From the IMG/VR virus record IMGVR_UViG_3300024348_000029, positions 340 to 64,339 of that record: a DNA stretch of 64,000 nt. The stretch is one strand, 5' to 3'. The stretch comes from a virus (lineage: Duplodnaviria > Caudoviricetes). The position numbers and the translations under genes are program-made. Positions 7,497-13,017 of the stretch are shown here, piece after piece; the first letter of the stretch is position 1, and every line of letters begins with the position of its first letter. The notes below the pieces were generated by a model. It was not told the origin of the DNA and ran no database searches. It worked only from the letters and a program-made list of their open reading frames with translations.

Positions 7497-7569
7497 TGGG
7501 ACAACCTGGAGTCGAACCAGAATCTACGGATTTTCAGTCCGCCGCTTTGACCACCTCAGCCATTGCCCC
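7497..7569 (-). tRNA. trnF: tRNA-Phe(GAA)
   Basis: cloverleaf; GCGGA-CT GAA AA-TCCGT; TTCGA T-loop. Confidence 0.93.
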
Positions 7570-7755
7570 ATTATATGTTTTTGCATACAGTAAATCTCTG
7601 CAGCCCTTTAAATACGTTTTCGCTATATGCAATTACATATGATTTTATACCCGTAAAGGTGTAATATACTGCACTATTAATCGGATTATACCCGATTAGG
7701 TATAGAAATACTAACATTAGTGCAACATATGGCACTTAATGATGGCATTTACTAG

Positions 7756-7828
7756 CGCGACAGGTAGGATTCGAACCCACAACTAACAGGTTTGGAAGCT
7801 GCTACCATTCCCAGACGGTCCCTGAAGC
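7756..7828 (-). tRNA. trnW: tRNA-Trp(CCA), atypical
   Basis: GCAGC-TT CCA AA-CCTGT, canonical T-arm, G73; mismatches in acceptor and anticodon stems. Confidence 0.75.
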
Positions 7829-7902
7829 TTATTATAGTTTTTCAGCATTTACTAAAATAAGACTAGACCTTATTATAGTTTTTTGCCGTTTACTAAACTA
7901 AG

Positions 7903-7976
7903 AATGCCGGGTGAGATTCGAACTCACGATCTTCAGGGTTGCAACCTTCTACCTTGGGCCACTCGGACACCAGCAC
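7903..7976 (-). tRNA. trnC: tRNA-Cys(GCA)
   Basis: TT GCA AC loop, U73, canonical T-arm; weak top of anticodon stem. Confidence 0.85.
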
Positions 7977-7985
7977 ATTATATTG

Positions 7986-8057
7986 AGTCAAGGGTTGGTT
8001 TCGAACCAACGACCTGAGTGTTAACAGCACCCTGCTCTACCACTGAGCTACCAAGAC
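7986..8057 (-). tRNA. trnN: tRNA-Asn(GTT)
   Basis: GCTC/GAGC D-stem, GGGTG-CT GTT AA-CACTC. Confidence 0.92.
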
Positions 8058-8064
8058 ATAATTG

Positions 8065-8146
8065 TAGAGAGAAGAGGCCCTGATCCCCCGCCGTTTCCGA
8101 CTCATCTGCTTAGCAAGCAGTGCCCACCCTGGTGAGTTCACTCTCT
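8065..8146 (-). tRNA. trnS: tRNA-Ser(GCT), 8/4-type non-canonical fold
   Basis: CTGC-TT GCT AA-GCAG, long V-arm, 4-bp T-stem with ATCAGGG loop. Confidence 0.75.
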
Positions 8147-8154
8147 ATTTATTG

Positions 8155-8243
8155 TAGAAGGAAGAGGACCCGACCCCCAGACAACCTAATGCCCTACAGT
8201 TTTCAAGACTGCCCGCCACTCCACTGTAGCTGCTTCACCTTCT
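8155..8243 (-). tRNA. trnS: tRNA-Ser(TGA), 8/4-type non-canonical fold
   Basis: GCAGT-CT TGA AA-ACTGT, long V-arm, 4-bp T-stem with GTCGGGT loop. Confidence 0.78.
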
Positions 8244-8375
8244 ATTTGTATACATATACGTTTACTTTTTTCGAGTTTTGTATACATATATGTTTACTTT
8301 TTACGCTTTTCTATGCATAAGAGGACATATATGTATACTAATTTGGGATTTTTTATCCTTATAGCTATACTTTTG

Positions 8376-8458
8376 TGGGGACGAAAGGATTCGAACCTCC
8401 AACGCCTTTCGGTACAGATTTACAGTCTGCTCGCTTCAACCAATTTGCATACGGCCCC
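8376..8458 (-). tRNA. trnY: tRNA-Tyr(GTA)
   Basis: GCAGA-CT GTA AA-TCTGT, long V-arm, A73. Confidence 0.93.
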
Positions 8459-8461
8459 AGT

Positions 8462-8911
8462 TTATCCATAATAACTATCCATCCAGTTATCAGGTAATAT
8501 TTCTTCGAATGTTTTAAGATCTTCCTTCTTTATTTTATCCTCATGAACTAACCGATGACAGTTAGGACATAGTAAAGTTAGATTTTTATGATTATGTGGA
8601 TCAGTAATCTTCCTTCCTTCTATATGATGAATATCACAACTACCTTTATCCCAACCACAACTAGAGCACCCTAACCCTAACCTTTTGATAATTTTTTGTA
8701 CTGTACGACTACTTAACTCCCAGATACTTAGGATACTAGCTTTATGTTTTCCAATACTATGCTTTATAGCCGAAGCTCTAAGCTTTTCTTTAGTCTCGTC
8801 TGTAACTACTCTTGTCTTATTATTATATATAACCCCACAAGATCTGCTACAAAACTTTTGACTTTTTGGCTTACCTTCTAAAGACTTACCACACTCTTTA
8901 CAATCTTTCAT
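8462..8911 (-). CDS. HNH endonuclease with N-terminal Zn-finger (putative homing endonuclease)
   Basis: CxxC...FCSRSC; CSSCG...DIHHI...NLTLLCPNCHRLVH. Confidence 0.9.
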   Translation of the reverse strand: MKDCKECGKSLEGKPKSQKFCSRSCGVIYNNKTRVVTDETKEKLRASAIKHSIGKHKASILSIWELSSRTVQKIIKRLGLGCSSCGWDKGSCDIHHIEGRKITDPHNHKNLTLLCPNCHRLVHEDKIKKEDLKTFEEILPDNWMDSYYG

Positions 8912-8951
8912 AATGTAAAGATAATCAATTCTACCGAACTATCAAAGAACT

Positions 8952-8987
8952 ATTTACAGTCCCGGCCCCAACCTGAGGCAACCCATT
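8952..8987 (-). pseudogene. 5' half-tRNA-Tyr-like remnant
   Basis: TG-CCTC-AGGTT-GGGG-C-CGGGA-CT GTA AA, then the sequence breaks off into the HNH promoter. Confidence 0.45.
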
Positions 8988-8999
8988 ATTCTTTTAAAC

Positions 9000-9027
9000 A
9001 AAAAAAAGTCTTACATTTCTGCAAGAC
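9000..9027 (-). terminator. attenuator terminator of tRNA operon C (Tyr/Ser/Ser/Asn/Cys/Trp/Phe)
   Basis: GTCTTGCA-GAAA-TGTAAGAC + T8 between leader ORF and tRNAs. Confidence 0.9.
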
Positions 9028-9061
9028 CTTCTTTAGAGACAAATTTATATTGTTAAATATG

Positions 9062-9136
9062 TCATACAGTAGAAGTCCCGCCCGAACGAATCGACCAGAA
9101 ATTATAATTACTATATGAACATACTATTGCTTTCAT
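9062..9136 (-). CDS. attenuator leader peptide C: MKAIVCSYSNYNFWSIRSGGTSTV
   Basis: 10 consecutive codons (C S Y S N Y N F W S) all read by the 7 downstream tRNAs; GCGGGACTTCT can pair with the terminator 5' arm. Confidence 0.9.
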   Translation of the reverse strand: MKAIVCSYSNYNFWSIRSGGTSTV

Positions 9137-9140
9137 CCTG

Positions 9141-11780: not shown

Positions 11781-12025
11781 TTAGTGTTTTCATCTGTAGA
11801 TAGTATTTTAGCCGATAATACACATCCACATCCTCTAACAATTTCTCCTGTCTTTACGTTTCTGCCTGACGCCATTGGATTACATATTAAATGAAACCTT
11901 ACTGGGCATACATTACAGATAATAATTCTCTTCTCCGCCATCTTCTTAGTTGACTCAGGAAGAAGGTTAAATGTTCCCTTAAGAGCATTTCCCCAACCGT
12001 TGATTATTTCATTAAGTTTACTCAT
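11759..12025 (-). CDS. small Cys-rich Zn-binding protein
   Basis: CNVC..C...GCGC...KCPLGKW; ATG 12025 lies 4 nt after TATATTTG. Confidence 0.8.
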   Translation of the reverse strand: MSKLNEIINGWGNALKGTFNLLPESTKKMAEKRIIICNVCPVRFHLICNPMASGRNVKTGEIVRGCGCVLSAKILSTDENTKCPLGKW

Positions 12026-12050
12026 AGAACAAATATACAAAAAATAATTG

Positions 12051-12121
12051 AATCCCGGGAGAGATTCGAACTCTCGTTTCTGGTGCCGTAAACCAGGGTT
12101 TTTCCCCTAAACTACCAGGAT
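12051..12121 (-). tRNA. trnR: tRNA-Arg(ACG)
   Basis: CTGGT-TT ACG GC-ACCAG. Confidence 0.92.
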
Positions 12122-12128
12122 ATATTTG

Positions 12129-12214
12129 TACCGAAGAAGGGAGTCGAACCCTCACGACCTTTACAGGCCCACAGATTTTAAGTCTGCTATGTCTACCAGT
12201 TCCATCACTAAGGC
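12129..12214 (-). tRNA. trnL: tRNA-Leu(TAA)
   Basis: GCAGA-CT TAA AA-TCTGT, long V-arm, A73. Confidence 0.93.
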
Positions 12215-12304
12215 ATTATGCGCCGATGAGAATATTCGGACGCCTGATTATACCCGAAAACTCAGGGTTAATTAATTCCCACGCTGCCTTCTTCTCATCT
12301 ATTG

Positions 12305-12390
12305 TACTCCTGACGGGACTCGAACCCACACTCTATTAAAAGAACTAGATCCTAAATCTAGCGCGTATTATCCAGTTTCGCCACAGGAGC
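12305..12390 (-). tRNA. trnL: tRNA-Leu(TAG)
   Basis: CTAGA-TT TAG GA-TCTAG, long V-arm. Confidence 0.93.
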
Positions 12391-12423
12391 GTATCTACAG
12401 CAAATTAACCCCTGCTGTAGTAT

Positions 12424-12500
12424 TGGGGTGTATGAGGAGACTCGAACTCCCTTAGGCCAGCACCACAAGCTGGGGCCTCGACCACTTCGGCATCATACAC
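12424..12500 (-). tRNA. trnH: tRNA-His(GTG)
   Basis: CCAGC-TT GTG GT-GCTGG, C73, encoded CCA; no genomic G-1. Confidence 0.9.
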
Positions 12501-12502
12501 AG

Positions 12503-12574
12503 ATGGGCTGCGGGAATCGAACCCTGTCTGCCTGGATCAAAACCAGATGTGCCTTACCATTACACTACAACCCA
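12503..12574 (-). tRNA. trnQ: tRNA-Gln(TTG)
   Basis: U1-A72, TCTGG-TT TTG AT-CCAGG; bulged T-stem. Confidence 0.88.
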
Positions 12575-12637
12575 ATTTCTAATTCTACGCTTCCAGATCC
12601 CTACAGGAGTTCTATAAATTAGTAACAGTCACCAACG

Positions 12638-12709
12638 TAACGCGACGGAGAGTCGAACTCCGGTTTTTGGGATGAAAACCCAAGGTCCTGTCCACTAGAC
12701 GACCGCGTC
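12638..12709 (-). tRNA. trnE: tRNA-Glu(TTC)
   Basis: GTCT/GGAC D-stem, TTGGG-TT TTC AT-CCCAA. Confidence 0.93.
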
Positions 12710-12765
12710 AAATACAGCTTTTATTTTTTGATAGGGGTTCAAAGCTGCAAACATTTCCTTCCCAG

Positions 12766-12842
12766 TATAGTAGGCCGGAATCGAACCGGCGCATTTCTTG
12801 CTCCCAAAGCAAGCGGGTTCTTCCATCTGCCCTAGCTACTAT
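12766..12842 (-). tRNA. trnP: tRNA-Pro(TGG)
   Basis: CTTGC-TT TGG GA-GCAAG, canonical T-arm; extra nucleotide after acceptor 5' strand. Confidence 0.88.
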
Positions 12843-12859
12843 ATTTATTGGTATAAACT

Positions 12860-12888
12860 AAAAAATCCCTCTAATTTCTTAGAAGGAC
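12860..12888 (-). terminator. attenuator terminator of tRNA operon A (Pro/Glu/Gln/His/Leu/Leu/Arg)
   Basis: GTCCTTCTAA-GAAA-TTAGAGGGAT + T-run, 17 nt before tRNA-Pro. Confidence 0.9.
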
Positions 12889-12915
12889 TCTTGTATGTGT
12901 TACACCGAGGGTAGA

Positions 12916-13005
12916 TTAAAGACCGTCGACACCGAATACAGGGTTCCTTCCATTACATTGTAACGGTTGCTCCAGTAATTCGATATGGCGTAATACTTTA
13001 ATCAT
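12916..13005 (-). CDS. attenuator leader peptide A: MIKVLRHIELLEQPLQCNGRNPVFGVDGL
   Basis: 11 of 12 consecutive codons read by the 7 downstream tRNAs; GGAAGGA-ACCC-TGTAT antiterminator. Confidence 0.88.
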   Translation of the reverse strand: MIKVLRHIELLEQPLQCNGRNPVFGVDGL

Positions 13006-13009
13006 GCTA

Positions 13010-13017
13010 CAAATATA
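13010..13017 (-). promoter_or_regulatory. Bacteroidota-type -7 promoter element (TATATTTG), operon A
   Basis: exact TAnnTTTG, 4 nt upstream of leader ATG. Confidence 0.78.

Follow-up and report, generated by a model that had tools for sequence, protein, structure and literature searches.

Why should each block of tRNA genes in a phage lie behind a short open reading frame (ORF) whose codons list the tRNAs of that same block? This question is raised by a 64,000-nucleotide stretch of viral DNA (the window hereafter; Duplodnaviria, Caudoviricetes), which spans positions 340-64339 of the 64,339-base IMG/VR virus record IMGVR_UViG_3300024348_000029. The record has a completeness estimate of 37%, and near-identical DNA was found only in marine DNA metagenome runs. 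An earlier sequence-only reading of positions 7,497 to 13,017 had described 25 tRNAs for all 20 amino acids in three leftward blocks, each preceded by a candidate leader-peptide attenuator. The correspondence between leader codons and tRNAs is real, statistically overwhelming and conserved with co-variation in other phages. We consider it probable that each block is a unit gated by a ribosome-mediated leader-peptide attenuator, which turns on when the codons of its leader are decoded slowly.

Three tRNA blocks and the codons of their leaders

ARAGORN with default settings recovered 22 tRNA genes, all on the minus strand, as are all the window features located below. Relaxed settings added Trp-CCA at 7755-7828 and Ser-TGA at 8154-8240 (both ps90) as well as Ser-GCT at 8064-8146 (ps80). 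An Rfam search (cmscan of 7000-13500) returned 23 tRNA rows, among which Trp scored 30.9 bits, over the cut-off, and His 26.8 bits, under it; Ser-TGA drew only a weak tRNA-Sec-like match of 25.2 bits, and Ser-GCT was not detected by Rfam. Since ordinary Ser, Trp and Cys genes occupy the same positions in related phages, the count of 25 tRNAs for 20 amino acids was accepted, and the leftward arrangement in three blocks was borne out by both programs. Three of the 25 (Trp, Ser-TGA and Ser-GCT) are low-scoring and may be structurally unusual. A relaxed-ARAGORN "His" at 11417-11338, which overlaps leader B, was rejected as a false positive and dropped before the counts. Block A (12050-12842) comprises Pro-TGG, Glu-TTC, Gln-TTG, His-GTG, Leu-TAG, Leu-TAA and Arg-ACG, and block B (10026-11329) Ala, Lys, Ile-GAT, Gly, CAT, CAT, Asp, Thr, Val, Arg-TCT and CAT; block C (7496-8458), for which the relaxed ARAGORN calls were included, holds Tyr, Ser-TGA, Ser-GCT, Asn, Cys, Trp and Phe. 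Matches to ATA or ATG assume that a CAT tRNA, whether initiator, elongator Met or Ile2, reads ATG or ATA. As judged from the anticodons, the tRNAs are grouped largely by first codon base: C-initial codons account for 5/7 in block A, A- or G-initial codons for 11/11 in block B and U-initial codons for 5/7 in block C.

Each block had been described as preceded by a TATATTT(G/A) promoter and an ORF of 24-29 codons, and coordinates and details proved correct on re-reading. Promoter A (TATATTTG, 13010-13017) lies 4 nt before the ATG of leader ORF A (MIKVLRHIELLEQPLQCNGRNPVFGVDGL, 12916-13005, 29 codons plus stop), a leaderless-like arrangement. Promoter B (TATATTTG, 11503-11510) lies 29 nt before the GTG at 11473 that opens leader ORF B (11390-11473, 27 codons plus stop; MDIATIVRVGGIDKISSGGTVAG from the internal ATG at 11461), and promoter C (TATATTTA, 9141-9148) lies 4 nt before the ATG of leader ORF C (MKAIVCSYSNYNFWSIRSGGTSTV, 9062-9136, 24 codons plus stop). 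The form TAnnTTTG is what we take to be the Bacteroidota -7 box; the whole window holds only five TAnnTTTG-N3-6-ATG sites, two of them with ORFs of at least 20 codons. An ORF starting at window 12025 (minus strand) likewise has TAnnTTT(G/A), 4-5 nt and ATG.

Between leader and block stands a GAAA-capped hairpin followed by a T-run: terminator A (UCCUUCUAA-GAAA-UUAGAGGGA + T6, 12860-12887, hairpin 12887-12866), terminator B (AAUCCUUCUAA-GAAA-UUAGAGGGAUU + T9, 11330-11362, hairpin 11362-11337, abutting tRNA-Ala) and terminator C (GGUCUUGCA-GAAA-UGUAAGACU + T8, 8998-9029, hairpin 9029-9006). The hairpins with T6-T9 were thus present in all three units as had been claimed, but not always just before the block, since terminator C is separated from tRNA-Tyr by 548 nt that include an HNH endonuclease gene. 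The term "three operons" is approximate for a similar reason: there are three blocks, each with a leader unit, but the HNH gene brings a promoter-like motif between attenuator C and its tRNAs. Terminator regions A (12863-12899) and B (11337-11373) are near-duplicates (37 nt, 95% identity), and the sensor runs of these two units are wholly different. A known RNA family (an Rfam leader, attenuator or T-box) was rejected as the identity of the leaders, for which cmscan of 7000-13500 at E<=1 gave no match; elsewhere only tRNA and chance miRNA-like rows were returned.

Every leader codon was labelled with the block that contains its decoding tRNA, Arg being split into CGN and AGR. This gave the block strings BBBAAABAAAAAAAACCBBCABCBBBBA for leader A, BBBBBBBBBBBBBBCCBBBBBB for leader B and BBBBCCCCCCCCCCBACBBBCBB for leader C. 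Each ORF carries a run of 10-16 codons, and all decoding classes of the own block are present in the three leaders (23/23). Sensor run A, LRH(I)ELLEQPLQ (12958-12993), has 11/12 codons read by block A tRNAs and contains all seven classes. In sensor run B, VMDIATIVRVGGIDKI (11417-11464), 16/16 codons belong to block B classes, including AGA, ATA and ATG, and in sensor run C, CSYSNYNFWS (9092-9121), 10/10 codons are own codons that represent all seven block C classes. The codon assignment also confirmed that the match reaches isoacceptor level, with AGA before the block of tRNA-Arg(TCT) and CGC before that of tRNA-Arg(ACG), TTA and CTG for two Leu tRNAs, and TCA and AGT for two Ser tRNAs.

Own-block codons numbered 45 of 73, a value that was reached by 0/200,000 random 6/9/6 partitions of the 21 decoding classes (null 24±4.5, maximum 43). 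The same outcome of 0/200,000 was obtained for the best-window and longest-run statistics, and the permutation test of codon content against anticodons therefore bore out the claim that the runs list the tRNAs of their own block. Among the six possible leader-to-block pairings the true one scored 45 and the other five 14-25. Ten-codon block-rich windows made up 0.1-0.9% of open six-frame windows, mostly in low-complexity frames. Six-frame windows with all classes of a block and at most one foreign codon were far rarer and numbered 3/60,097 for block A, 6/54,406 for block B and 5/66,932 for block C, the leaders included. Chance ORFs were rejected as an explanation of the match by these window counts and by the random partitions, here and in the wider comparison below (0/50,000).

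Conservation and co-variation in other phages

The same tRNA order was found by blastn in the Cellulophaga phages phi17:2 and phi4:1. The three leaders of phi17:2 differ in sequence from those of the window and have the same block-specific composition: MKIQRLHLQELEQPIISGGTGV; QLTKTGITVIDKTKGARAYLGDTVIG, from a GTG; and MKTNYCTYNNSNWSFSYDTGSVCTLGSDGLIG. The window TerL is not close to that of any isolated phage (best matches 24-28%, crAss-like), and phi17:2 was not among the matches listed; phages that differ in their packaging genes thus share the layout. The window terminase used as an anchor retrieved 22 IMG/VR loci, three of which have tRNA arrays: L014 (TerL 77%), L016 (41%) and L017 (42%). 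Other searches added little. The TerL anchor of phi17:2 brought back phi4:1 only, five larger related records held 0-2 tRNAs each, and a blastn search of isolated phages with the L016 array found scattered single-tRNA matches only. Leader-motif and terminator pattern searches returned 34 and 19 loci, respectively; at least three tRNAs were present in 4/53, three being contigs already known and the fourth (L082) having its match away from its tRNAs.

Units were then defined by an automatic rule: a hairpin of -7 kcal/mol or stronger with at least four T, and a 15-45-codon ORF ending no more than 120 nt upstream, the nearest ORF being taken. Exactly one unit was found before every block. The counts cover 12 units from five genomes (the window, L014, L016, L017 and phi17:2); phi4:1 was left out, as none of its three leader peptides differs from its counterpart in phi17:2. 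The recovered hairpins have free energies (dG) of -10 to -18 kcal/mol, T-runs of T4-T9 and a distance of 7-24 nt to the first tRNA (548 nt for unit C of the window). Every unit has one ORF of 21-32 codons, whose stop lies 21-40 nt before the hairpin in 12/12 units; only unit A of the window offers a second, shorter candidate ORF. Codons were scored at a resolution of 23 classes, in which the codon boxes of Leu, Ser and Arg count separately. Three relaxed-ARAGORN false positives were dropped before the counts ("???-TA" in L014, Ile-AAT in phi17:2 and Tyr-ATA in L017), and a "???(TG)" call was taken as Cys-GCA by eye.

The own leader was found to hold 86 of the 87 block classes, the miss being Met in unit B of phi17:2, where the start codon is uncounted. 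Over the first 18 positions 153/216 codons belong to the own block, and the longest own runs extend over 3-18 codons. Random class sets of the same sizes gave 51.8±3.8 classes and 68±7.8 codons, and the observed values were reached in 0/50,000 of them; the result was still 0/50,000 when only the five evolutionarily distinct partitions (window A, B and C; L016 1 and 2) were used. In frames +1 and +2 the counts fell to 51/87 and 46/87 classes and to 49 and 44 codons, at or under the null. A composition artefact was rejected, as the shifted frames behave like the null, and the confinement of the match to one reading frame is the best available evidence for leader translation. Under strict wobble rules 156/183 own-class codons are readable by the tRNAs of the block.

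A TAnnTTT(G/A) motif lies no more than 75 nt upstream of 10/12 leaders. In five of them the motif is separated from the start codon by 4-5 nt (unit A of the window, L014 and phi17:2, unit C of the window and unit 2 of L016), which suggests leaderless mRNAs, and in the other five by 14-32 nt. B-type leaders begin at a conserved GTG; that at 11473 in the window is found in L014 and phi17:2. The second codon is Lys in 8/12 leaders. Lys in this second place favours initiation in E. coli.

Where the tRNA set of a block had changed between phages, the leader was found to have changed with it, apart from one exception (a CGA codon in L014). One L016 block (Arg-TCT, Lys, CAT, Gly, Asp, Asn, Ser-TGA, Ser-GCT, Thr, Ile, Val) stands behind the B-like leader MKNISINTGINKTDKVDSR(AGA), also given as KNISINTGINKTDKVDSR(AGA), in which 18/18 codons are own codons; like its block, it has gained Asn and Ser and lost Ala. 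The other L016 block (Glu, Leu-TAG, Leu-TAA, Trp, Cys, Arg-ACG) stands behind MKNLVTLLECRLWLEE, which reads LLECRLWLEE; here Trp and Cys have been gained, and Pro, Gln and His lost, in leader and block alike. L017 has this second type of unit. In L014, block B is without Lys and Arg-TCT and its leader run, TAINIAVVIMTGADMA, is without Lys and Arg codons, whereas the window and phi17:2 keep both tRNAs and the matching codons. Block A of L014 is without Leu-TAA and its leader uses CTA and CTT as the only Leu codons, whereas the window, with both Leu tRNAs, uses TTA and CTG. The search among related phages for co-variation between leaders and tRNAs, which the sequence-only reading had put forward as a check, was thus positive in L014 and L016/L017. 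Throughout, leader sequences vary between phages yet remain within the codon set of the block. Two further features of the L016 array (plus strand) were recorded: a second strong hairpin with T5 (341-386, dG -15.2) between a promoter-like TATCTTTG and leader 1, and a lipoprotein-like small ORF (655-795) within the block, between tRNA-Arg-TCT and tRNA-Lys.

The same logic is found in phiCbK, an unrelated phage, the record of which annotates terminators before tRNA blocks. One of its blocks (Pro, Pro, Thr, Lys, Lys, Leu x3, His, Ala and Ser x3) stands behind gp335 (45 aa, MFALSHNSLSTKAASPASLSLAPLATATKPSTKPTTSASHSTDHL), in which 41/44 residues correspond to the own block (equalled by 1/100,000 random sets). 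Another (Phe, Val, Ile, Ile, Val, Gln, Gln, (Ile), Arg, Arg and Gly) stands behind an ORF of 32 codons that includes RQFVRQIQVVRNIRAGR and has 19/31 own-block residues (52/100,000 random sets). When the two blocks were swapped as a control the scores became 1/44 and 6/31. Upstream of a third terminator (L086 1121-1167, before tRNA-Glu/Asp) no convincing codon-matched ORF was seen.

The deposited record of phi17:2 (L001, NC_021798) has annotation problems at 6193-6312, 4270-4371, 5904-5976 and 3637-3711. Leader B is annotated there as the hypothetical protein gp077, from a TTG inside the promoter, and leaders A and C are unannotated; gp078 overlaps an unannotated tRNA-Ser-TGA, tRNA-Lys is unannotated, and the "pseudo" tRNA is Cys-GCA.

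The leader tail as a putative switch

The segment of upstream sequence that pairs best with the 5' arm of the terminator was sought in every unit with RNAduplex, using 300 shuffles of the upstream region as background. In 12/12 units this segment falls within the ORF, between nt 24 and 75 (codons 8-25), and in 11/12 it starts at codon 13 or later, past the sensor run and before the stop. Pairing energies range from -9.8 to -24.0 kcal/mol, with z-scores from -1.0 to -6.4; shuffles at least as good numbered 47, 32, 2, 20, 0, 4, 11, 10, 1, 0, 14 and 1 of 300. The partner changes together with the arm (UCCUUCU/GGAAGGA, GUCUUGC/GCAAGAC, GAUCCUGU/ACAGGAUC, CCUUGACCC/GGGUCAAG and CCUCUGG/CCGGAGG), and for each arm the own ORF tail ranks 1-4 of the 12 tails. 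In the window the putative antiterminators are AUGGAAGGAA in unit A (12944-12953), CUCUUCUGGAGGAACCG in unit B (11401-11417) and GUUCGGGCGGGACUUCUA in unit C (9070-9087; dG -14.3, z -2.9). The proposal that a segment of each ORF is complementary to the hairpin therefore stood as regards its place, but the pairing is weak in units A and B and non-specific in unit B.

The consequence of ribosome position was modelled by folding the transcript to the terminator loop with 27 nt masked around every possible A site. With the A site in the sensor run, upstream sequence is predicted to hold the 5' arm with a probability (P) of about 0.5-0.9. Past the end of the run this value drops to about 0-0.4 within about two codons in most units; in unit C of the window and of phi17:2 it stays near 0.4-0.7. 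In untranslated RNA the model leaves the arm free (P 0.03-0.12) in unit A of the window, unit A of phi17:2 and unit 1 of L017, as with a trp-type anti-antiterminator, and in the remaining units free RNA already holds the arm (P 0.27-0.92). In a control with chimeric leaders the own arm was held with 0.74 against 0.51 on average for non-homologous arms (Wilcoxon p 0.0012). As modelled, the geometry would fit attenuation with stall-induced read-through; this is well supported for unit C, moderately for unit A and weakly for unit B. One low-depth contig from run X3 carries a T>C change at window 9076 (plus strand; ACT to GCT when read on the minus strand). The change lies within the putative antiterminator of leader C, where it would turn an A-U pair into G-U; it stands in a single contig near its end and may be an error.

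The attenuation-type layout that had been proposed for each block is thus supported by the frame-specific match, by conservation of leader composition in four other phage genomes, by co-variation, by a co-varying putative antiterminator whose position within the ORF tail is constant, and by the folding model. In the mechanism we favour, polymerase would start at a Bacteroidota-type promoter and a ribosome would begin the short ORF, probably on a leaderless mRNA in units A and C, whose AUG lies 4 nt past the -7 box. If all codons of the run were read promptly, the ribosome would reach the ORF tail and cover the antiterminator segment, the GAAA hairpin and U-run would form, and transcription would end before the tRNAs. 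Should any one run codon be read slowly because its (charged) tRNA is scarce, the ribosome would stall upstream, the free tail would pair with the 5' arm of the terminator, and polymerase would read into the tRNA genes. The new tRNAs would restore decoding and the unit would shut off, so that each block would be served by an OR-gated supply loop under negative feedback. We infer leader translation, termination, the direction of the switch and its trigger, which may be host shut-off, codon demand or anticodon nucleases; starvation or anticodon nucleases, named in the sequence-only reading, would be conceivable triggers at the same level of inference.

Several observations weigh against this mechanism. 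Attenuation senses charged tRNA, and amino-acid starvation would therefore induce the tRNAs uselessly. As regards codons, 27/183 own-class codons are NNY codons of four-codon boxes with a U34 tRNA and need four-way reading; the Met class is missing in unit B of phi17:2; foreign codons stand inside the runs (Ile in run A of the window and in unit A of L014, Asn twice in unit B of L014, Thr in unit C of phi17:2); and leader A of L014 retains CGA though no Arg-ACG gene was found there at relaxed thresholds. As regards RNA, pairing is weak in unit A (z -1.0, 47/300 shuffles) and unit B (z -1.3, 32/300) of the window and in unit A of L014 (z -1.5), and unlike trp 7/12 units are predicted to be antiterminated when untranslated (P 0.48-0.92). 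Foreign arms did at least as well in 6/8 chimeras of unit B of the window and 6/11 of unit B of phi17:2, which thus show no specificity; background pairing is high because the arms are pyrimidine-rich and the tails purine-rich. The folding itself is an equilibrium treatment of a truncated transcript, without kinetics. Lastly, the promoter-like motif of the HNH insert, downstream of attenuator C, may let block C bypass the attenuator.

These points bear on three other explanations. The leaders may be translated and their codon content selected, with the read-out being transcript stability or processing, Rho access or the timing of tRNA release, and the hairpin a constitutive partial terminator or 5' processing signal. 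The missing or weak antiterminator specificity of the four units just named would agree with this, as would the several units predicted to be "on" without translation. We nevertheless regard it as unlikely, since the best partner of the arm lies in the ORF in every unit, past the run in all but one, and co-varies with the arm, since the drop in the model comes where the run ends, and since the stop-to-hairpin distance of 21-40 nt is kept, a geometry unneeded for stability alone. It is quite improbable that the switch is reversed, or a general sensor of translation capacity, such that efficient leader translation gives read-through and the codon catalogue is a by-product of phage tRNA use. Free RNA does favour the antiterminator in 7/12 units, but a ribosome past the run is predicted to occlude it, clearly in most units; moreover the nearly full class coverage suits an OR-gated shortage sensor and not a capacity gauge, and positive feedback on tRNA supply gives no homeostasis. 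It is most improbable that the ORFs serve to make functional peptides, or that they occur by chance in the interval from a promoter to an upstream gene's terminator and match the tRNAs by coincidence: small ORFs are frequent and one in phi17:2 is annotated as a hypothetical protein, but no permutation (0/200,000 and 0/50,000) reproduced the match, it holds in one frame only, and the peptide sequences are unconserved while their composition tracks the tRNA sets in five genomes and phiCbK.

The HNH gene of unit C (8462-8911, 149 aa; PHROG HNH families, E 4e-14) has its own TATCTTTA-N4-ATG motif. Between it and terminator C lies a degenerate tRNA-Tyr-like remnant (8912-8990), directly after the terminator; the 89 nt past terminator C can be aligned with tRNA-Tyr across its D and anticodon arms (GGACTGTAAAT being invariant) and are degenerate where the HNH promoter begins, and an intact tRNA-Tyr follows the HNH ORF. 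In L014 and phi17:2 the terminator directly precedes tRNA-Tyr and HNH is absent from this place. Given this absence and the Tyr remnant of the window, the HNH gene is taken to be a later insertion, and it looks like a homing endonuclease that entered block C at its first tRNA or next to it. In runs X2 and X4 there are low-depth contigs in which 8300 is joined to 8952, and the remnant/HNH region thus varies in the population.

Relation to known systems

The purpose of phage tRNAs has been debated for decades, codon compensation being set against the replacement of tRNAs destroyed by host defences, according to PMC10264068. The regulation of phage tRNA genes has hardly been addressed so far. Full-text literature searches, with subscription-only papers and supplementary tables outside their scope, brought up no account of leader-peptide control of tRNA genes, and the same negative rests on passages of PMC6409571 and PMC3556154; the sequence-only reading had likewise known of no description for phage tRNA arrays. 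In the available text of a survey of viral tRNA clusters, supplement excluded, the words leader, terminator, promoter, attenuat* and operon are all absent. The available text of the phiCbK genome paper, again without its supplement, contains neither "attenuat*" nor "leader" and treats the tRNAs as codon-usage helpers, and regulation is not discussed in an eLife paper about anticodon nucleases and phage tRNAs.

If the attenuation mechanism holds, a phage regulates its tRNA supply by demand, block by block, through a sensor that lists codons. Swaps of sensor codons would then rewire which shortage induces which block, and specific synthetase inhibitors or tRNases would induce the matching block only. 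Classical attenuation would be extended to a case in which the product is the sensed molecule, a minimal homeostat. We tentatively suggest, while holding it somewhat doubtful, that phages with tRNA arrays make general use of codon-catalogue attenuators, and that the per-block loop doubles as an alarm for anticodon nucleases or host tRNA shut-off, replacing only the tRNAs attacked. In that case, since they occur both in phiCbK of Caulobacter and in Bacteroidota phages whose terminases are unrelated, they would have been invented repeatedly or have spread widely by horizontal transfer. Cultivable systems exist in phi17:2 and phi4:1 on Cellulophaga baltica and in phiCbK on Caulobacter. The leaders could serve as compact parts for codon-specific translation sensors, and their recognition allows better annotation of the phi17:2 and phiCbK records, where they are unannotated or mis-annotated.

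Among known systems, multivalent attenuators include ilvGMEDA (Ile/Leu/Val) and thr (Thr/Ile), beside those of trp, his, leu and phe. Like these amino-acid operon attenuators, the phage units appear to combine a short leader ORF with regulatory codons, an intrinsic terminator and a putative ribosome-controlled alternative pairing of its 5' arm, and three of them have a predicted anti-antiterminator. Unlike them, the phage units would regulate tRNAs and not biosynthesis, transport or synthetase genes; the sensor is a catalogue of 5-11 decoding classes at isoacceptor-box resolution where the classical leaders sense 1-3 amino acids; and the output would close a direct loop on the sensed molecule in a system that is phage-encoded and often leaderless-like. 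The attenuator of the E. coli pheST operon (Phe-tRNA synthetase) resembles the phage units in that leader-peptide attenuation controls a translation-apparatus gene serving the sensed codon, but it senses a single amino acid and regulates a synthetase. T-boxes bind uncharged tRNA directly, with no ribosome involved; they have a single specifier, and the genes they control are synthetase or amino-acid genes. They share with the phage units the sensing of tRNA status via a codon-like specifier and a terminator/antiterminator switch; no Rfam T-box match was obtained in 7000-13500 at E<=1, and there is no T-box structure here.

The general principle of leader-peptide attenuation is treated in PMC1183508. 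Polycysteine leaderless short ORFs of mycobacteria are reported to be Cys-responsive attenuators (bioRxiv 10.1101/834739); they resemble the phage leaders in being leaderless short ORFs whose codon content senses and which control a downstream operon, but only a single amino acid is sensed, and the targets are genes of Cys metabolism. The nearest functional analogue is the megaplasmid trn operon of Anabaena PCC 7120, whose 26 tRNA genes are reported to be repressed by TrcR and induced by translational stress (PMC10272220). There too an accessory tRNA array is off until translation is impaired, but control is exerted by a ribbon-helix-helix repressor at the promoter of one operon, with no leader peptide or codon-specific sensing in the account given there. 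What would be new in the phage units, relative to known attenuation, is a sensed molecule that is itself the product, together with a sensor for many codon classes.

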